From positions 44,035-108,034 of the forward strand of contig QZKH01000006.1 in assembly GCA_003598025.1 (NCBI GenBank): a stretch of 64,000 bases of DNA, written 5' to 3'. Positions 3,542 to 20,210 of this stretch are shown one piece after another. The notes under the pieces are model-generated. The model saw nothing but the letters and a program-made list of their open reading frames with translations. It made no database searches and was not told where the DNA came from. Each line of letters starts with the position of its first letter. The first letter of the stretch is position 1. Both the position numbers and the translations under genes were made by a program. Source of the DNA: Candidatus Omnitrophota bacterium (GTDB lineage: Bacteria > Omnitrophota > Gorgyraeia > Gygaellales > Profunditerraquicolaceae).

Positions 3542-4075
3542 ATGCCTGTTATTAAATTAAAACCCGTCAAAGTAAGCCGCAAATTATTTAAGCTGCTAGA
3601 ACGCCGCAAACTAATAAAGACATTCTCGCCATCTAATAAGGTGTTAAATGTCAAACCCGGGCATGGTTATGTCGATACGGTATACGCTTGCTCTGAGGAA
3701 TATGGCCCGCATAAATTGATCTGCGTTGGTTTGAATTCCAGTAAAATCAGGCTGGCTTCGCATCCGGATAAAGAAGATTTTATTCTTATTAATAATATCC
3801 GGAAGTCAAAACCTTTATATATTGTGATAGGCTTGTATAAGCATGATATCATTCAGAATAAGGTTAAATCAGGTAAATTAACCGCTAAAGATTTCATTAT
3901 GTTAAATATCAAGCACAATGATATCCATACCTGTGTTTTTACCATGCTCGAAGGGACTGTGCATTGGGAAGCTACGACTAAGGGAAGGGGCAATTCTCCG
4001 TTTTTCTTTGTAACTGAACCCGCCAGACTAAGAATGGATTTCATAGACTTGTGCGAGTATAAGGTGGAGATATAA
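3542..4075 (+). CDS. Hypothetical protein, 177 aa, AT-rich orphan ORF with no recognisable domain.
   Basis: Clean ORF, but no Shine-Dalgarno-like motif (AAGGAG/GGAGG-type) was seen upstream of the ATG. Composition is AT-rich relative to neighbours. It is bracketed on both sides by GTTCAT-type repeat elements (3432-3504 and 4089-4327). Confidence 0.45.
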   Translation: MPVIKLKPVKVSRKLFKLLERRKLIKTFSPSNKVLNVKPGHGYVDTVYACSEEYGPHKLICVGLNSSKIRLASHPDKEDFILINNIRKSKPLYIVIGLYKHDIIQNKVKSGKLTAKDFIMLNIKHNDIHTCVFTMLEGTVHWEATTKGRGNSPFFFVTEPARLRMDFIDLCEYKVEI

Positions 4076-4523: not shown

Positions 4524-6110
4524 ATGAATCTAAGGACTCCTGGCGGAAATGATGCCAGCAGAACGTTTAATCGTTCCAAAAATGTAGTGCCTTGTTCCGG
4601 ATTATGTTCAAGGTGTCTTGAGTCATGCAGGGGTAATTGCGAGGTCTTCAAGTCTTCTTTTAGAGGCAGGGAAGTTATATATCCAGGGCCTTTTGGGGAG
4701 GTAACAGCCGGAGGCGATAAGGATTACCCGGTTGATTATTCACATATTAACATACATGGCTATGCCCAGGGAGCAAAAGGTTTACCCAAGGGTGTTAGCG
4801 CAGGCCCTGATACGGCAATATTCCCGGCAGTAGATACTCAGACCGAATACGGCTGGGATAAAAAAGTAAAAATGAAGGCGCCTATTTTTACCGGCGCTTT
4901 AGGTTCAACTGAAATCGCCCGTAAAAATTGGGAGCATTTTGCGATTGGCGCTGCTATTTCAGGCGTAACAATTGTATGCGGCGAGAACGTTTGCGGGATT
5001 GACCCTAAACTGGAGTTAGACAGCAAAGGAAAGGTCGCAAGCGCCCCTGATATGGACAGGAGAATAGAAGTCTATAAGAGATTTCATGACGGCTATGGCG
5101 AAATTCTAGTGCAGATGAACGTTGAGGATACAAGGCTTGGAGTCGCTGAATATGTACACAAAAAACATAAGCTTGATACCATTGAATTAAAATGGGGGCA
5201 GGGTGCTAAGTGTATCGGCGGTGAAATAAAAGTTAAAAGCCTTGAAAGAGCGTTAGAATTAAAGAAAAGAGGTTATATAGTCACCCCTGATCCTACGATA
5301 AAGGCGAATCAGGAAGCTTTTAAAGCCGGGGCAATCAAAGAGTTTGAAAGGCATTCGCGCCTCGGATTTGTTTCAGAGGAAGCCTTTATGAAGGAAGTCA
5401 AGCGTTTAAGGGATATAGGTTTTAAGAGAGTTACATTAAAAACAGGCGCTTATTCCATGGTTGAGCTTGCCCAGGCAATAAAGTTTTCTTCGCAGGCCAA
5501 AATCGACCTTTTGACTATCGATGGAGCCCCCGGCGGCACAGGTATGAGCCCATGGAGGATGATGCAGGAGTGGGGTATACCTACATTCTATCTGCAGGCT
5601 TTAGCTTATGAATTCTGCGAGAAGCTGGCTAAAAAGAAAAAGAGAGTTCCGGATATAGCTATTGCCGGAGGATTCGCTTTAGAAGACCATGTCTTTAAGG
5701 CTATAGCAATGGGCGCTCCTTATGTAAAAGCAGTATGCATGGGAAGGGCGCTTATGATACCCGGATTCGTTGGGAAAAACATAACAGAATGGATTAAAGG
5801 TAATACTTTACCGCCCACGGTGTCTGAATTCGGAAAAACCCCCGAGGAAATCTTTGTCTGTTATGAAGAGCTCTCCGAAAAATATGGCAATGATATGAAA
5901 GATATCCCGTTAGGAGCAGTTGCCATCTACACTTTCTCGCAACGTATAAAAGTAGGTCTTCAGCAGCTTATGGCAGGCTCGCGGAACTTTAACTTGAGTA
6001 CGATCTCAAGGAAGGATTTAATGAGTTTGACAAAGGAAGCTGAAGAGGTTAGCGGCATTCCTTATGTTATGGATGCTTATAGGAAAGAAGCAGAGAAAAT
6101 ATTAGCATAA
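4524..6110 (+). CDS. Standalone glutamate-synthase-family FMN-domain protein with a Cys-rich N-terminus (probable Fe-S site).
   Basis: LTIDGAPGGTGMSP matches the GltS FMN-domain signature ([12 protein letters not shown]). N-terminal CSGLCSRCLESCRGNC Cys cluster. Strong RBS AAAGGAGAA upstream of the ATG. Confidence 0.75.
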   Translation: MNLRTPGGNDASRTFNRSKNVVPCSGLCSRCLESCRGNCEVFKSSFRGREVIYPGPFGEVTAGGDKDYPVDYSHINIHGYAQGAKGLPKGVSAGPDTAIFPAVDTQTEYGWDKKVKMKAPIFTGALGSTEIARKNWEHFAIGAAISGVTIVCGENVCGIDPKLELDSKGKVASAPDMDRRIEVYKRFHDGYGEILVQMNVEDTRLGVAEYVHKKHKLDTIELKWGQGAKCIGGEIKVKSLERALELKKRGYIVTPDPTIKANQEAFKAGAIKEFERHSRLGFVSEEAFMKEVKRLRDIGFKRVTLKTGAYSMVELAQAIKFSSQAKIDLLTIDGAPGGTGMSPWRMMQEWGIPTFYLQALAYEFCEKLAKKKKRVPDIAIAGGFALEDHVFKAIAMGAPYVKAVCMGRALMIPGFVGKNITEWIKGNTLPPTVSEFGKTPEEIFVCYEELSEKYGNDMKDIPLGAVAIYTFSQRIKVGLQQLMAGSRNFNLSTISRKDLMSLTKEAEEVSGIPYVMDAYRKEAEKILA

Positions 6111-6130
6111 TTTTCTTTGCGAAGCAAAAT

Positions 6131-6168
6131 TAAAGCGCCTTGTCTTACTGACAGGGCGCTTTAATTTT
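6131..6168 (+). terminator. Rho-independent terminator after the gltB-paralog gene.
   Basis: aaagcgccttgtcttactgacagggcgcttt followed by aatttta. 8-11 bp GC-containing stem. Confidence 0.5.
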
Positions 6169-6287: not shown

Positions 6288-8237
6288 ATGGATAAGCATG
6301 CCGCCATAGATAATTTCCTTAGAAATCTCAGGATGGTCCTTAATAATGCTTTTATGTATAATAAGGAACATCCTTATTTTCTTAAATCAGTAGATTTGTT
6401 TAAAGGCAGCCTGGATGCCTTGTTTTCTTTAATCTCCCCCCTGAAAATCGGATTTACTCCTTCCTCGCTGTTTATCGGAAGCGAACATTTAGAAAGCCAG
6501 CCTTTGTATGAAGAAATAGCCAGAATATTCCATAACCGTAAGATTAAGAGCATCGAGATAAAAGATAATGTTACCACGGAAGAATTGGTTGATTTTCTCT
6601 CTACGGTAACCATGCCTGTCAGGGATTTGATCCAGCAAGGTAACATAAGGGCAATCTTTAATAAAGCAAAATTCCCTGATTTTCTAGTCGAAGAACTCGA
6701 TTATTCCATATTTTTAAGCGAGCAAGGAAGCGAACTTAAGGACCTATGGGGCAGCTTCTTGAGGGAAGCCGTTGTTAATAACGATTCGGACAGGATAGCA
6801 GACCTATCCGATAACTTCGGTACTGTCGTAAGAAAACTGAGCAGTAAGGATTTCTTAGATGACCAGCGGCTGCAAGCAGACGTAAAAGATTTCCTTAAGC
6901 ATCTTAAGGAATCACAAAGGGATAAATTTTATCAGTGCTCAAAAGAGATATTCAAATGGGCTATGAATAATAAACATAATCTGGATAATGAGCAGCTTGA
7001 TAAGATGAAAGCCATGCTTAAAGAGCTTGAAGACAGTGAGTTTGCCCGTCTTTTTTCGGAAGAGATACTTGAAGACGATAAGTTTGATCTTTTAAGTTTC
7101 CAGCTTTTCTCCAGGTTTATAGTAGAAGGCAGGCATAATAATGTAAGCAACCATTTAGCTAACGACAAGGCATTAAAAGACAACCTTAAGGACAGCCTTT
7201 CCGTTAAGAACAAGGTAAAAGAGCTGCTCTCTGCCCCTGAGGCGGAGATGGGTACCTCTAAAATTTTTCACAACACGCTCAAAATTTTGCTTACAAACAT
7301 AACTTATGAAGAAGGCATTTATTTCGACAGGAAACTATTAGAGGTAAATTATCGTTTTGTGCTAGTATCGATTTTTAGCACGGAAGAGGAGATGGGTAAA
7401 TTAAAGATTGTCGCCAATAGGTTGTCTCAGGTAGTCGAGCATGATAAGCAGGACATGGATCTTGATTGGTTGGTCACGGTGCTTGAGGCAATCAACGCTA
7501 AAAAGAAAAACTTTAGCCGAGGTTATAAAGAATTCTCGGATTTAGAAAAAAGATTAGCTAACTTTGTTGAGACGATGTTTTGGCAGGGCAGCATTTCTTT
7601 ACAGATGCAGAAATTAGTTGATTCTCTGGAAGTAACATCCATGGATTCCCATTTTTACTTAGAAAAGATGTTCGTCTATGGCCAAATAAATCAAAATGCC
7701 ATTAAGCTCTTCCTCAGGTTCTTTCCTTCAGATATCGCAATCTTTTATAAGAATATACAAGACAATGCTTATAAGACTGAAATGATGGCTGTGTTAACCG
7801 AGGCATTAAAAGGGCTAAAACACCATCTCGTTTTGGATATCTTAAAGACCATTTATAGCACCCCCAACCAATTCTTAAAAATTGAGGCTCTCAGGGCCAT
7901 GGCGGATAATAAAATAATTGACCAGGCATTCCTCTTAAATGTGATATCAGGGCAGGATATTACTTTGAAAAAAGGGGCTGTATATGCGCTGCTTAACGAA
8001 TCTGAAAGCCTTAAAAAGGCAATAGCTATTCTTTTAGATATCCCCAGCCCATTTGGGATAAGAAATCATATTATTATTGAAAACCTGCAGATTGTTGATG
8101 AGCTTATTTTGAGAGAAGCAATCAACAGCGTTATCGGGCTAAGCAACAGGAGATTTTTCTGGAATAAGGCGCTGAGAGAAAAGGCAGCTCAAACCCTAAG
8201 GAAATTAAATGTTAGAACAGGTAGAGAAGGCATTTAA
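6288..8237 (+). CDS. Hypothetical 649-aa protein. The N-terminus resembles the DUF3391-type domain found in front of HD-GYP domains; the C-terminal third has HEAT/PBS-like helical repeats; there is no catalytic domain.
   Basis: The N-terminal approx 110 aa align position-by-position with the N-terminus of the downstream HD-GYP protein (F..L...L..A..Y...H..F..SVD..Y.SL pattern). C-terminal EALRAMADNK / AVYALLNES repeats. Confidence 0.5.
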   Translation: MDKHAAIDNFLRNLRMVLNNAFMYNKEHPYFLKSVDLFKGSLDALFSLISPLKIGFTPSSLFIGSEHLESQPLYEEIARIFHNRKIKSIEIKDNVTTEELVDFLSTVTMPVRDLIQQGNIRAIFNKAKFPDFLVEELDYSIFLSEQGSELKDLWGSFLREAVVNNDSDRIADLSDNFGTVVRKLSSKDFLDDQRLQADVKDFLKHLKESQRDKFYQCSKEIFKWAMNNKHNLDNEQLDKMKAMLKELEDSEFARLFSEEILEDDKFDLLSFQLFSRFIVEGRHNNVSNHLANDKALKDNLKDSLSVKNKVKELLSAPEAEMGTSKIFHNTLKILLTNITYEEGIYFDRKLLEVNYRFVLVSIFSTEEEMGKLKIVANRLSQVVEHDKQDMDLDWLVTVLEAINAKKKNFSRGYKEFSDLEKRLANFVETMFWQGSISLQMQKLVDSLEVTSMDSHFYLEKMFVYGQINQNAIKLFLRFFPSDIAIFYKNIQDNAYKTEMMAVLTEALKGLKHHLVLDILKTIYSTPNQFLKIEALRAMADNKIIDQAFLLNVISGQDITLKKGAVYALLNESESLKKAIAILLDIPSPFGIRNHIIIENLQIVDELILREAINSVIGLSNRRFFWNKALREKAAQTLRKLNVRTGREGI

Positions 8238-9543
8238 AGATTTACTGGCATCTTTGCAATTGGCTAAATTATACGGGATCCAGCATAAGATATTTAGAGA
8301 TTCTGTGGATAAAGCCTATTTAAGCCTGGCTAAGGCGCTGGAAGGAAGAAGCGAACTGGTTATAGGCATTATTGGCGAAGAGCTGGCTTTTGAAAAAGAG
8401 ATACTATTTGGATTAAGCAAGGCTATAGGCCCGGCAGTGGGTTATTTAAAGAACTTGGGTATTGAAAGGATATCATTCGGGAGCAATGTTCAGAAGGATG
8501 AACTTGAGAAATTCATTGAATTTTTGGCTTCCAAAAAAGATACTGCTATAGACCAGCAGGGGTTAGATTTCGGGTCTTTAGGCATAAGGAACATTGTCAT
8601 CGGGAAACTCACCGTTCTTGGTAAAGACAAAGTTGATGAGTTAGGCATAAAGGCCGTAGATTATATGAATATATACGGTTCGGCTGCTGATATGGCGCAT
8701 AAGTCTTTTTCTTCCATGCTTGAAGGAGAGGCGCTTGATGCCTTGGCGGTAAAGTTAGCGCTTAATAATATATTAGAGAACCTGGCAGTTTATCATAATG
8801 AATTTTTCAAGATTGTAGCCTTACGCCGGCATGACCCTCAGACGCACATACACCTTATTAATGTTGCGACAATAGCAATGTACTTTGCCTCCAGGCTTGG
8901 TTTTAGCAAGGCTGATATACTGGACATCGGGATGTCCGGATTATTCCATGATATCGGCAAACTCTATATCTCCCACGGGATACTTACTAAAACAGATAAG
9001 CTTACCAATGAGGAATTTGCAAAAATAAAGAGCCATACTATATTTGGCGCAGAAATTTTATTGGAACATATAGAATCACTGGGGATACTGCCTGCAGTTG
9101 TTTCTTTTGAGCACCATCTTAAGTACGATATGACAGGTTATCCCAGAGTTAACTATTCCCGCAGGCCCCATATAGCCTCTTTGATTGTTTCTATATGCGA
9201 TGTTTATGATGCTTTATTTTCAAGAAGGACATATAAAGAGGATTATTCGCCGGAAAACGTCTATAATATAATGATTAAGGATAAAAATACTGCTTTTGAA
9301 CCGCGCCTTGTAGAGAGATTTTTTAAAATAATGGGTGTTTGGTATATAGGCTGTGTGGTTTCCCTGAGCGATGGCAGGATTGCCGTAGTCCGGGAGCAGA
9401 ATGAAGACGATATCAGGAGGCCAAAAGTAGAGGTAGTTTTCCCTAAAGATAGAAAAGAATTTATTGATCTGAAAGAGAACTCATCGCTTGAGATAAAGCG
9501 CAGCCTTAATCCCTGGACGGAAGCCAGGGATTATGTGTCTTAG
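8209..9543 (+). CDS. HD-GYP domain phosphodiesterase (c-di-GMP family) with a DUF3391-like N-terminal domain.
   Basis: HDIGK metal-binding motif and HHLKYDMTGYPR (HD-GYP signature). Overlaps the upstream ORF by 29 nt in another frame. Confidence 0.8.
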   Translation: MLEQVEKAFKDLLASLQLAKLYGIQHKIFRDSVDKAYLSLAKALEGRSELVIGIIGEELAFEKEILFGLSKAIGPAVGYLKNLGIERISFGSNVQKDELEKFIEFLASKKDTAIDQQGLDFGSLGIRNIVIGKLTVLGKDKVDELGIKAVDYMNIYGSAADMAHKSFSSMLEGEALDALAVKLALNNILENLAVYHNEFFKIVALRRHDPQTHIHLINVATIAMYFASRLGFSKADILDIGMSGLFHDIGKLYISHGILTKTDKLTNEEFAKIKSHTIFGAEILLEHIESLGILPAVVSFEHHLKYDMTGYPRVNYSRRPHIASLIVSICDVYDALFSRRTYKEDYSPENVYNIMIKDKNTAFEPRLVERFFKIMGVWYIGCVVSLSDGRIAVVREQNEDDIRRPKVEVVFPKDRKEFIDLKENSSLEIKRSLNPWTEARDYVS

Positions 9544-9631: not shown

Positions 9632-9659
9632 TTGACTTTTAAACCGGATATGTTATAAT
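9632..9659 (+). promoter_or_regulatory. Candidate promoter (TTGACT-16-TATAAT) for pyrG.
   Basis: cattgacttttaaaccggatatgttataatt, positioned approx 40 nt upstream of a terminator hairpin and approx 130 nt upstream of the pyrG ATG. Confidence 0.4.
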
Positions 9660-9696: not shown

Positions 9697-9739
9697 GGCG
9701 TTTTGGGGCTGGAAGTGTCACCCCGATACGCCTTTTTTT
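9697..9739 (+). terminator. Intrinsic-terminator-like hairpin + U-tract inside the pyrG leader (candidate attenuator).
   Basis: ggcgttttggggctggaagtgtcaccccgatacgcc followed by ttttttt. Stem arms GGCGT..GGGG / CCCC..ACGCC. Confidence 0.5.
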
Positions 9740-9788
9740 GTTGGTTCCCCAGGGAAAATATGCTTTAATCATTCAGATTAAAATAACT

Positions 9789-11393
9789 ATGGCAAAATTT
9801 ATTTTTATTACGGGTGGGGTTATTTCAAGCTTGGGCAAGGGAATAGCTTCAGCCTCAATAGGTAAAGTCCTTGAGTCAAGAGGGATAAAGGTTACCCTTA
9901 TGAAACTGGACCCATATATTAATGTTGACCCTGGCACGATGAACCCTTATCAGCATGGCGAAGTGTATGTTACAGAAGACGGCGCTGAAACAGATTTAGA
10001 CCTTGGGCATTACGAAAGATTTACGTCAGCAGCAATGACTAAATTCAACAATGCTACTACCGGACAGGTTTATAATGCGGTTATTTCCCGGGAAAGGCGC
10101 GGTGATTATCTGGGAAAAACTATTCAGGTAATACCTCATATCACTGATGAGATAAAGAGCCGTATCAAAAAAGTCGCTGAGGTTTCTAATGCTGAAGTAG
10201 TGATTGTTGAGATTGGCGGGACTGTAGGTGATATCGAGGGCCTGCCATTTTTGGAAGCAGTAAGGCAGTTCAGGCTGGATGTGGGCCAGGATAATGCACT
10301 CTACATTCATTTGACACTTGTCCCTTATATAAAATGCGCAGGTGAAATAAAAACCAAGCCTACCCAGCATAGCGTCGGTACGCTTCGCGAGATAGGAATA
10401 CAACCGGATATTTTGATCTGCCGCACAGAAAAACCGCTGAGCACTGAAGTAAAAGAAAAAATCTCTCTTTTCTGTAACGTAGCCAAAGAGGGCGTTATTG
10501 AGGCCCGGGATGTAGATTCTATATATGAGCTTCCCATCGTATTTAAAAACCAGATTTTGGATGAGATAATTTTGAGCCATTTTAAGCTTATCCGTAAATC
10601 CTCAGAGCTTAAAGACTGGGAAAAAAATGTCGTTGAGAGAGCATTAAACCCAAAGCGCAGAGTAACAGTAGCTATTGTAGGCAAATATATCGGCTTACAG
10701 GATGCTTATAAGTCAATATATGAAGCCTTAAACCACGCCGGTATTTATAATGATACAGCCGTAGATTTAAAGAAGGTGGATTCTGAAGAGCTATTATGCT
10801 GTGCGCCGGAGAAATTACTGGAGGGAGTAAGCGGCATATTGGTCCCCGGAGGCTTTGGCTCGCGGGGTGTAGAAGGTAAGATAAGGGCAATAAGGTATGC
10901 CAGAGAAAAACGAATCCCGTTCTTAGGGCTATGCTTGGGTATGCAGTGCGCGGTAATAGAATTTGCGCGTAATGTTGGTGGATTTAAAAAAGCTGATTCA
11001 ACGGAATTCCACCCTAATACGAAATACCCTGTAATCAGCCTTTTGGAAGAACAGAAAGGCATAAAGGAGATGGGTGGGACGATGCGTTTGGGTGCTTATC
11101 CCTGCCATATTAAAAATGGGACAAGGGCTTTACGCATTTATGGGAAAAATATGGTTACTGAAAGGCACAGGCATAGGTATGAGTTCAATAATAAGTACAG
11201 AAAACAGCTTGAAAAGAAAGGCCTGACCTTTTCAGGCATATATAAAAAGAAGAATTTAGTCGAAATAATAGAAATTAAAGACCATCCTTTTTTTGTAGCA
11301 GTACAATTCCATCCGGAATTTAAATCCAAGCCAGATTCTGCACATCCATTATTCAGGGATTTTATAGAGTCAGCCTTGGCTATGTCAGATTAA
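9789..11393 (+). CDS. pyrG: CTP synthase.
   Basis: N-terminal [25 protein letters not shown] is canonical. The GATase C-terminal domain has GLCLGMQ and the HRHRYE motif. Start placed at the ATG at 9789 rather than the upstream in-frame start at 9738. Confidence 0.95.
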
Positions 11394-18989: not shown

Positions 18990-20210
18990 TTAAAGCTTGA
19001 GGTTTTTAAATAACGGTATCGCCTGTTTTACGACTAGCGGATCAAATTGCGTCCCTGAGCGTTTTTCCATTTCTTTACAGGCAGCCAGCGGAGTCAGTGG
19101 CCTGCGGTACGGCCTGTTAGATGTCATGGCATCAAAGGCGTCGCATACTGCAAGTATCCTTGCCCCCAGAGGTATTTTCTCTCCTTTTAACCCGAGCGGA
19201 TAACCTTTGCCGTCAAAGCGCTCGTGATGAGAAGAAGCTATCAATGCTATCTCCTTCAAAGTTGACATCATGTTAAGTATTTGATTGGTAAGGCTTGCAT
19301 GGGTTTTTACTTTTATAAATTCTTTTGGCGTTAATTTTGAAGGTTTATCTAATATTTGCCTGGATAGGCTTATTTTACCTATATCATGGATCAGCCCTGA
19401 CCATTTAATTTTTGTAATATAATCATGGTCCAGGTCAAAAGCCAGGGCAATACCCATCGCATACCTGGAAACCCTTAGCGAGTGCCCGGAAGTATAAGGA
19501 TGTTTCATATCGATTATCTGTGCGATGGCTTCTAAAGCTGTGCCTATGGCGTCGACCCTGCTGGGGATCTTGATGAATCCGGCCTTTTCTTTGGTATCCT
19601 GGAATATCAAAGGTATGTTTGAAGAGGATAATAATTTACGATAAAAATTACCTTTTGAAAGCACCTGCCTCGCTTTTGAGAACAAATCGTAAGAATATTC
19701 CTTATTGACGTTTGTAGAAAGATGTTTTAAGAGAGGGCCCATTTCCTTAAACCTTCCTGTCTGTATAGCAATATCTATAGAATCAGCAATCCGGATTATC
19801 TTAGAGCCAATGGGTATAAATTTATTTGTTTTACCGCGCGGGTATCCATGTCCGTTAACCCATTCGTGATGGTCAAGTATCAATTTGGCAACAGGGGTCA
19901 TTTGGGGTATATTGGATACGAGCTGCGCCCCCAGTATGGGATGAGAAAACAGGATGTTTTGACTTTCTTTGTCTTTTTTCTTAAGATAATGCAGAATATT
20001 GTAAGGGAATCCGGCTCCACCTATATCATGCAGGACAGCCGCATAAAATATGCGTCGTAATTCTCTCTGTGACACCAGTTTTTCTGCTATTTTACATGAG
20101 AGTATGGCTACTCTCCAGGTATGATACGACTTTTTCTTTTCATCGATGTCGGTAATATAAGCCAGTACGGTAATGAGTTCGTTGATAGTTTTAGTAGGGT
20201 TTATCTTCAT
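18990..20210 (-). CDS. Protein with two tandem HD-GYP domains.
   Basis: First copy HDIGGAG...HHEWVNGHGYPRG; second copy HDIGKIS...HHERFDGKGYPLG. 406 aa. Confidence 0.75.
   Translation of the reverse strand: MKINPTKTINELITVLAYITDIDEKKKSYHTWRVAILSCKIAEKLVSQRELRRIFYAAVLHDIGGAGFPYNILHYLKKKDKESQNILFSHPILGAQLVSNIPQMTPVAKLILDHHEWVNGHGYPRGKTNKFIPIGSKIIRIADSIDIAIQTGRFKEMGPLLKHLSTNVNKEYSYDLFSKARQVLSKGNFYRKLLSSSNIPLIFQDTKEKAGFIKIPSRVDAIGTALEAIAQIIDMKHPYTSGHSLRVSRYAMGIALAFDLDHDYITKIKWSGLIHDIGKISLSRQILDKPSKLTPKEFIKVKTHASLTNQILNMMSTLKEIALIASSHHERFDGKGYPLGLKGEKIPLGARILAVCDAFDAMTSNRPYRRPLTPLAACKEMEKRSGTQFDPLVVKQAIPLFKNLKL

Follow-up and report, generated by a model that had tools for sequence, protein, structure and literature searches.

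A divergent HD-GYP protein and a predicted α-solenoid protein with homologous N-terminal domains are encoded by a conserved gene pair in Omnitrophota

The ORF1-ORF2 gene pair

We have analysed a stretch of 64,000 nt of genomic DNA from a Candidatus Omnitrophota bacterium (the window), which carries on its forward strand two overlapping open reading frames (ORFs), the second of which encodes a protein related to the HD-GYP class of cyclic di-GMP (c-di-GMP) phosphodiesterases. ORF1 (6288-8237, +) specifies 649 amino acids (aa) and ORF2 (8209-9543, +) specifies 444 aa; the 3′ end of ORF1 and the 5′ end of ORF2 have 29 nt in common, read in different frames. An earlier reading of this DNA, made from the sequence alone (the original prediction), had placed both ORFs at these coordinates with this overlap, which the ORF listing bears out. 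Identical proteins occur in a public record of a Candidatus Omnitrophota metagenome-assembled genome (MAG), where ORF1 is labelled “hypothetical protein” and ORF2 “HD domain-containing protein”. The GC content of the pair (~0.38-0.40) resembles that of the surrounding DNA. The features of the two genes, both of which start with a domain that we have termed the N-domain, are as follows, with the evidence in brackets:

6288-8237, + strand: ORF1, N-domain followed by a predicted α-solenoid, orphan family (no Pfam or NCBIfam match; homologs; AlphaFold2 model)
6288-6707, + strand: N-domain of ORF1, aa 1-140 (profile comparison, AlphaFold2 model)
6729-8204, + strand: predicted α-solenoid of ORF1, aa 148-639 (AlphaFold2 model, Foldseek)
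8198-8202, + strand: Shine-Dalgarno (SD)-like AAGGA, 6 nt 5′ of the ORF2 ATG and within the 3′ end of ORF1 (sequence)
8209-8237, + strand: overlap of ORF1 stop and ORF2 start, 29 nt (ORFs, family junctions)
8209-9543, + strand: ORF2, divergent HD-GYP phosphodiesterase (Pfam, PDB-sequence and Foldseek matches)
8209-8616, + strand: N-domain of ORF2, aa 1-136 (profile comparison, predicted structure)
8617-8823, + strand: helical linker of ORF2, aa 137-205 (monomer model)
8824-9333, + strand: HD-GYP catalytic domain, ORF2 aa 206-375 (Pfam, residue mapping from PmGH)
9334-9540, + strand: C-terminal β-rich domain of ORF2, aa 376-444 (predicted structure, conservation)

Homology of the two N-domains

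Family alignments were compiled from 44 homologs of ORF1 (A1) and 42 homologs of ORF2 (A2). Profiles were needed because BLASTP of the whole of ORF1 against the whole of ORF2 missed the similarity between their N-domains. Aligned by Smith-Waterman, the first 140 residues of the two proteins scored 52, as compared to 28.3 ± 4.7 for shuffled sequences, with two out of 2000 shuffles reaching 52. Comparison of the full-length profiles with hhalign returned a probability of 96% (E = 3.6e-9), in which ORF1 from residue 5 onward pairs with ORF2 from residue 3 onward; for the N-domains only, the probability was 97.8% (E = 1.2e-12, score 75.9, 123 columns). Control scores were at most 20.1 for 30 column-shuffled profiles, 15.2 for a reversed profile and at most 16.6 for other regions of either protein. 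According to hhalign, the homology stops at the N-domain boundary and does not continue into the linker of ORF2 or the mid-region of ORF1; the long tail of the full-length profile alignment was considered as real homology and rejected, there being no similarity past the N-domain.

When 24 N-domains are aligned jointly, hardly any gaps are needed over ~135 residues. Y, H, I and E residues are invariant in both families, between which identity is otherwise as low as 15-22%, and the 24 sequences reveal a common motif, Y-x3-H-P-x-F-x-K-S, the invariant residues of which are Y24 and H28 in ORF1 and Y22 and H26 in ORF2. In the predicted structures, the Y-x3-H-P part sits in the loop between α1 and α2. 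The AlphaFold models give the same order of elements for both proteins (α1-α2-β1-β2-β3-α3-β4-α4…β5), the full order in ORF1 being α-α-β-β-β-α-β-α-α-α-β. A chance or compositional likeness of two helical regions, for which the silence of BLASTP on the full proteins could be adduced, is exceedingly improbable: shuffled, reversed and off-target controls all lie at least 55 score units below the real hhalign score, the near-gapless alignment over ~135 residues includes common invariant residues, and the predicted order of secondary-structure elements is identical. The original prediction was thus correct in calling the two N-domains homologous, and they align significantly under profile comparison, full-length and N-domain only alike; the length of ~110 aa it gave did not hold, as the domain measures ~135 aa.

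The N-domain as a new family

Neither Pfam nor NCBIfam has a match for ORF1 anywhere along its length, nor for the N-terminal region of ORF2. The N-domains had been described as “DUF3391-like”, which proved not to be the case. In comparisons with the DUF3391 model (PF11871), there was no match at E ≤ 1 for ORF1 or ORF2, and none at E ≤ 10 among the 24 family N-domains. Moreover, in DUF3391 four β-strands precede two long helices (Galperin and Chou, bioRxiv 10.1101/2021.11.05.467447), and the predicted order in the N-domain is the reverse, the two long helices coming first; we have therefore rejected this assignment. Bd1817 (3tm8) aligns with ORF2 in the HD region only in the PDB-sequence search. 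Searching PDB sequences with the N-domain profile yielded nothing credible, and no ligand-binding fold was recognised in the PDB-sequence profile and Pfam searches.

An exhaustive search of 1.84 billion cluster representatives with the N-domain profile identified 5149 matches at E ≤ 1e-3, 1455 at E ≤ 1e-10 and 151 at E ≤ 1e-30. The best 150 of the 5149 have the lengths of the ORF1 or ORF2 families, or are shorter. Ten matches of odd length were scanned as candidates for new architectures; they include no Pfam domain except HD/HD_5 and are therefore fragments of the same two families. The N-domain is a well-delimited, unannotated new family without a relative in Pfam, NCBIfam or PDB.

The helical region of ORF1

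The AlphaFold2 model of ORF1 (mean predicted local distance difference test, pLDDT, of 86) features the N-domain (aa 1-137) followed by ~30 helices (148-639) in an all-α arrangement; confidence peaks in the C-terminal 200 aa, with pLDDT >90. With Foldseek, the solenoid hits importin-α/β, PP2A-A, SF3b1 and designed ARM proteins in PDB at E~1e-4, with template modelling (TM) scores of 0.14-0.26; at the level of the fold, it resembles protein-binding ARM/HEAT scaffolds. Pfam matches ORF1 to neither HEAT nor ARM at E ≤ 1, and no internal sequence repeats were detected when solenoid segments were compared with one another (best hhalign probability 13%). The region 148-639 is thus modelled as an α-solenoid that is “HEAT-like” at fold level only: of the HEAT repeats claimed for ORF1, a generic α-solenoid fold is retained, and the repeats themselves find no backing in either Pfam or internal similarity.

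Our first search for ORF1 homologs returned 94, of 571-660 aa or fragments, with a sharp gap in E-value beneath them, and all of these were from Omnitrophota-type MAGs. When the solenoid alone was used as query, the word filter let through just two members of the family, and the protein was not met in any other context. ORF1 is a non-enzymatic protein, a paralog of the N-domain joined to an α-solenoid of ~500 aa.

ORF2, a divergent HD-GYP protein

Two Pfam models match ORF2 above their cut-offs over aa 206-366, HD at 58 bits and HD_5 at 48 bits. No such match occurs in ORF1, and the HD and GYP motifs of ORF2 are intact, in agreement with the claim that only the second protein carries an HD-GYP catalytic domain. 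Its closest solved relative is the c-di-GMP phosphodiesterase PmGH of Persephonella marina (PDB 4MCW; E = 2e-30), followed in the ranking by V-cGAP3 (specific for cyclic GMP-AMP, cGAMP), PA4781 and DvhD; the PDB-sequence matches include 5z7c (1e-18) and 4r8z (2e-13). The top nine Foldseek matches of ORF2 are all HD-GYP or related HD phosphodiesterases (4mcw, 4r8z, 9rbz, 3tm8, then PgpH 4s1b).

Catalytic residues were mapped from PmGH by alignment, and their conservation was counted in the 42 homologs. The metal ligands H215, H247, D248, H276, H302, H303 and D331, which correspond to H189, H221, D222, H250, H276, H277 and D305 of PmGH, are invariant (42/42), so that seven of the eight ligands are kept. 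G310-Y311-P312 is equally invariant, K251 and K261 show little or no variation, and the lysine equivalent to K235 of PmGH, which binds c-di-GMP, is retained in the family. The remaining ligand, the bridging E185 of PmGH, is replaced by Q211 in ORF2; at this position the family has E in 23 of the 42 homologs, G in 13 and other residues in six. ORF2 therefore lacks the eighth ligand, within the E/D-T-G that defines the trinuclear subgroup.

The family motif reads HHLKY(D/N)x(S/T)GYP: HHL stands in place of the canonical HHE in all 42 homologs, and the first G of GxGYP is changed to L, S, M or V in 41. The signature by which Galperin and Chou accept members of the HD-GYP class is HHExh(D/N)GxGYP (bioRxiv 10.1101/2021.11.05.467447), and ORF2 fails it in full. 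It does keep HH, h, D/N and GYP, and we therefore regard it as a divergent subtype rather than as a canonical member. In PmGH, Ala substitutions at the His and Asp ligands abolished activity, and E185A kept residual activity (PMC4159591). Because the ligands essential in PmGH are invariant and the E185A variant is still partly active, ORF2 looks catalytically competent, and its homology with PmGH makes c-di-GMP the most likely substrate.

The linker of ORF2 (aa ~135-210) is helical, with low pLDDT in the monomer model, and is placed where the S-helix or dimerisation helix of other HD-GYP proteins sits; we have likened it to α5 of PmGH, which dimerises exclusively via its N-terminal domain and linker helix (PMC4159591). 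The C-terminal domain, predicted with confidence at ~aa 383-432 (pLDDT 80-90), is conserved across the family with ~61% mean identity. It has no Pfam match, and Foldseek gave only insignificant Tudor/SH3/YgdR-like hits. In the predicted structure it resembles a small β-barrel, and it may serve to bind a ligand or a partner.

The window includes a second HD-GYP protein (18990-20210, −; 406 aa), of the tandem canonical type, with two HD_5 stretches (216 bits). It has no N-domain (hhalign probability 0.1%) and no ORF1-like partner; the partner therefore tracks the N-domain, not HD-GYP proteins generally. Its neighbours are lpxB, a GFO_IDH gene and an msbA-like ATP-binding cassette (ABC) gene. In a related genome (locus P0091), the ORF1-ORF2 pair itself adjoins lpxB.

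Conservation of the pair and its junction

We have scanned one genome per GTDB species and found an ORF1 relative in 183 genomes, nearly all Omnitrophota MAGs and a few with other submitter labels; 80 loci were kept. An ORF2 homolog lies directly downstream of ORF1, on the same strand, in each of the 80 loci with enough DNA, which answers positively the question of whether the gene pair is conserved in related genomes. Starting in reverse from two ORF2 homologs outside the ORF1 match list, we found upstream of both a Pfam-less gene of 640 or 648 aa that overlaps them, and this reverse approach, from ORF2 to ORF1, also holds at two further loci. The flanking genes vary between genomes, and the pair is constant. 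Three loci, which their submitters assigned to Aminicenantes or Eubacteriales, have another HD-GYP-like gene 1-2 kb upstream of the pair (L078, 2682-3236, −; L079, 2690-3148, +; L082, 2902-3336, +).

Together with the window, the 80 loci provide 81 junctions. ORF1 and ORF2 overlap by 4-29 nt in 79 of these, most often by 11 nt (38 loci), and by 17 nt in 15 loci; 62 loci have a frame offset of +1, and 18 have one of +2. ORF2 starts with ATG in nearly all junctions, with an AAGGAG-like sequence 5-10 nt 5′ of it, inside ORF1 (family SD-like consensus AAGGAG), and the ORF2 homologs all start at the aligned Met1. The two exceptions to the overlap are L038, with an intergenic gap of 122 nt (~5956-6079), and L046 (2220-4319), where an ORF1 of 699 aa, with an insertion of ~60 aa, comes to its stop 48 nt before ORF2. 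The conserved overlap with its internal SD-like sequence is consistent with translational coupling; the “co-translation” of the original prediction can be upheld in this sense, and nothing stronger than coupling is implied.

Overlapping ORFs in different frames could also be the remnants of one gene that a frameshift has turned into a pseudogene, or could be joined by programmed ribosomal frameshifting. We give this explanation almost no credit. No fusion of ORF1 and ORF2, which the original prediction had named as the finding that would speak against it, occurs in any of the 81 junctions, and this, with the near-universal overlap behind an SD-like AAGGAG, tells us that the pair is not a frameshifted pseudogene. 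The variable overlap (4-29 nt), the presence of both offsets (62 and 18 loci) and the two gapped loci imply that there is no conserved slippery site. Furthermore, the ORF2 homologs begin at an aligned Met1 behind an SD-like sequence, and both families are stable in length and conserved at the protein level.

Boundaries and neighbourhood

Two further features delimit the pair, the hairpin at its 5′ boundary and the promoter at its 3′ boundary:

6126-6168, + strand: likely terminator hairpin, formed by a perfect inverted repeat of 19 bp (AAAATTAAAGCGCCTTGTC / GACAGGGCGCTTTAATTTT) and flanked by A and T tracts (sequence, fold, z-score -7.6)
9632-9659, + strand: σ70-like promoter TTGACT-16-TATAAT, 11/12 matches, with a TG extension, before pyrG (sequence)

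The hairpin likely serves the upstream glutamate-synthase-like gene as an intrinsic terminator, which is probably bidirectional. No riboswitch or other Rfam family was found in or around the operon, several sub-threshold matches to small RNAs at 6126-6168 being due to the terminator hairpin, and the search for defence systems returned no match other than generic Cas3-HD noise. With a terminator upstream and a separate promoter downstream, the pair is, as judged from its sequence, an autonomous, translationally coupled two-gene operon characteristic of Omnitrophota.

The gene upstream (4524-6110, +) encodes a Glu_synthase (flavin mononucleotide domain) protein, 528 aa long and rich in Cys at its N-terminus. 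A Glu_synthase gene is also found directly upstream of the pair in at least one distant Omnitrophota genome (L046, 443-2122), and other genomes have a different gene there (NAD synthase, TMP-TENI, others). Further upstream, an ORF of 177 aa without Pfam match (3542-4075, +) is located in DNA of lower GC content (0.365-0.38) between the gltD-like and Glu_synthase-like genes. Downstream, the ORF of pyrG (9738-11393, +) opens at a TTG (MLVPQGKY…), and the conserved start of CTP synthase is 17 codons further on; translation therefore probably begins at the ATG near 9786, which fits the strong promoter at 9632-9659.

Discussion

The central claim of the original prediction, a pair of genes sharing a duplicated input domain, of which one has an HD-GYP domain and the other a helical region, is substantiated by the profile statistics and the strict conservation of the pair. 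Our preferred reading is that ORF2 is an HD-GYP enzyme coupled to a non-catalytic partner, ORF1, with which it associates through the paralogous N-domains; we would put its probability at about 0.5. The N-domain would then be an oligomerisation module, a signal-input module, or both. By analogy with the dimerisation of PmGH, the N-domain of ORF1 would dock onto that of ORF2, and ORF1 would be a dedicated non-catalytic subunit, the solenoid surface of which may localise, scaffold or gate the phosphodiesterase; coupled translation would keep the amounts of ORF1 and ORF2 matched. We propose docking because PmGH dimerises by its N-terminal domain, HD-GYP proteins act in complexes, and solenoids, which serve as protein-binding platforms, bind proteins.

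Several observations weigh against this reading or lend it no support. Mirror-tree correlations, uniform (0.5-0.8) over all domain pairs, do not discriminate between readings, and partial correlations (r of 0.06-0.42) reveal no excess between the N-domain of ORF1 and that of ORF2. ORF1 has no counterpart of the long linker helix of ORF2; a PmGH-like coiled-coil heterodimer is therefore impossible, and any contact must be N-domain to N-domain. Each of the two N-domain families has invariant patches of its own, which fits separate functions as well. The N-domain may also occur in other contexts, the matches inspected being the 150 best of 5149. Finally, the HHL motif, the change of G to L, S or M, and the Q at the position of E185 make the activity and substrate of ORF2 uncertain. 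We also considered whether conserved residues of one N-domain complement those of the other in charge, an idea that found no net support and was dropped.

The main rival explanation is that each N-domain reads one common cue, a small molecule or a macromolecule, on its own and makes no contact with the other. ORF2 would respond by altered nucleotide hydrolysis and ORF1 through its solenoid on a different target, and co-transcription would merely coordinate their expression. We deem this unlikely, albeit deserving of serious consideration. It would account for the invariance of Y, H, I and E across families that are only 15-22% identical and for the position of Y-x3-H-P in the α1-α2 loop, which fits a common ligand site, as well as for the family-specific patches and the lack of excess co-variation between the N-domains in the mirror-tree analysis. 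Nevertheless, overlap in 79 of the 81 junctions and absolute adjacency are more typical of the subunits of a complex than of independent effectors, and the N-domain has no recognised ligand-binding fold.

It is less probable still that ORF2 is not a c-di-GMP hydrolase, and acts on another nucleotide (3′3′-cGAMP, pGpG, a cyclic oligonucleotide) or as a receptor, with ORF1 as its effector or adaptor. The replacements of HHE by HHL and of GxGYP by (L/S/M)xGYP run throughout the family (n = 42), the equivalent of E185 is Q in ORF2 and G in 13 of the 42 homologs, and the HD_5 score of ORF2 (48 bits) compares poorly with that of the canonical HD-GYP protein in the same window (216 bits). The second-best PDB match is to a cGAMP-specific enzyme, V-cGAP3, non-hydrolysing HD-GYP proteins that act by protein contacts are documented, and, as weak evidence, no GGDEF motif was seen within the 64-kb window. 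On the other hand, all His and Asp ligands essential in PmGH are invariant in the ORF2 family, the lysine matching K235 is kept, and PmGH E185A retained residual activity (PMC4159591); the documented inactive HD-GYP proteins have lost HD or HH residues, both of which ORF2 possesses.

Among c-di-GMP phosphodiesterases, the HD-GYP class is the less well understood, and annotation is lacking for most of its N-terminal input domains. The present analysis adds an orphan partner family of ~640 aa, found only beside the ORF2-type enzyme, and the hypothesis that duplication of an input domain made a regulatory subunit. Should this hypothesis be borne out, it would add a new mode of HD-GYP regulation, and the pair would offer an entry into signalling in Omnitrophota, which are uncultured and ultra-small, and suspected of host-dependent lifestyles. 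The broader notion that the novel domain family defines a phylum-wide heteromeric HD-GYP holoenzyme, of a catalytic and an α-solenoid regulatory subunit and born of input-domain duplication, is tentative, and we lean somewhat against it; were it true, no HD-GYP phosphodiesterase would be known before this one to operate with a non-catalytic subunit that is its paralog, and second-messenger signalling in Omnitrophota would become accessible. If ORF1 and ORF2 do not interact, the annotation still gains a domain not described before and a subfamily of divergent, HHL-type HD-GYP proteins.

Comparison with known systems

The architecture had been called undescribed for HD-GYP systems, and we have come across no published description to the contrary, in a literature coverage that is incomplete: neither the survey of HD-GYP architectures and related literature nor articles on Omnitrophota and c-di-GMP, or on HD-GYP and HEAT repeats, report an HD-GYP enzyme that is encoded together with a paralog of its input domain.

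The stressosome resembles the logic proposed for ORF1 and ORF2, in that co-encoded proteins use one paralogous domain for co-assembly: RsbR paralogs and RsbS share a STAS domain that mediates their co-assembly, and other parts of the proteins sense or provide the output. However, the domains are unrelated, the stressosome output is a kinase cascade, and its complex is experimentally established, whereas the co-assembly of ORF1 and ORF2 is something we infer.

RpfG with its GGDEF and PilZ partners, HnoD, which inhibits HnoB, and DvhD set precedents for HD-GYP proteins in complexes and in local signalling. Their partners are proteins with c-di-GMP domains or proteases, not paralogs of the input domain, and HD-GYP proteins of this type are mostly catalytically degenerate, whereas ORF2 keeps its ligands. 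The Bd1817 family (DUF3391-HD-GYP; PA4108, VC2497) shares with ORF2 the succession of an uncharacterised N-domain of ~120-135 aa, a helix and the HD-GYP domain, but in DUF3391 the β-strands come first, and no partner gene with the same N-domain has been described.

PmGH and ORF2 have a common layout of N-terminal regulatory domain, long helix and HD-GYP. The N-terminal domain is a GAF in PmGH and an unannotated α/β domain in ORF2; PmGH has HHE together with the trinuclear signature E-T-G, where ORF2 has HHL together with Q-T-H; and ORF2 carries a C-terminal β-domain that PmGH lacks. PmGH forms homodimers, and no paralogous partner gene is known for it, such as ORF2 has in the adjoining ORF1.

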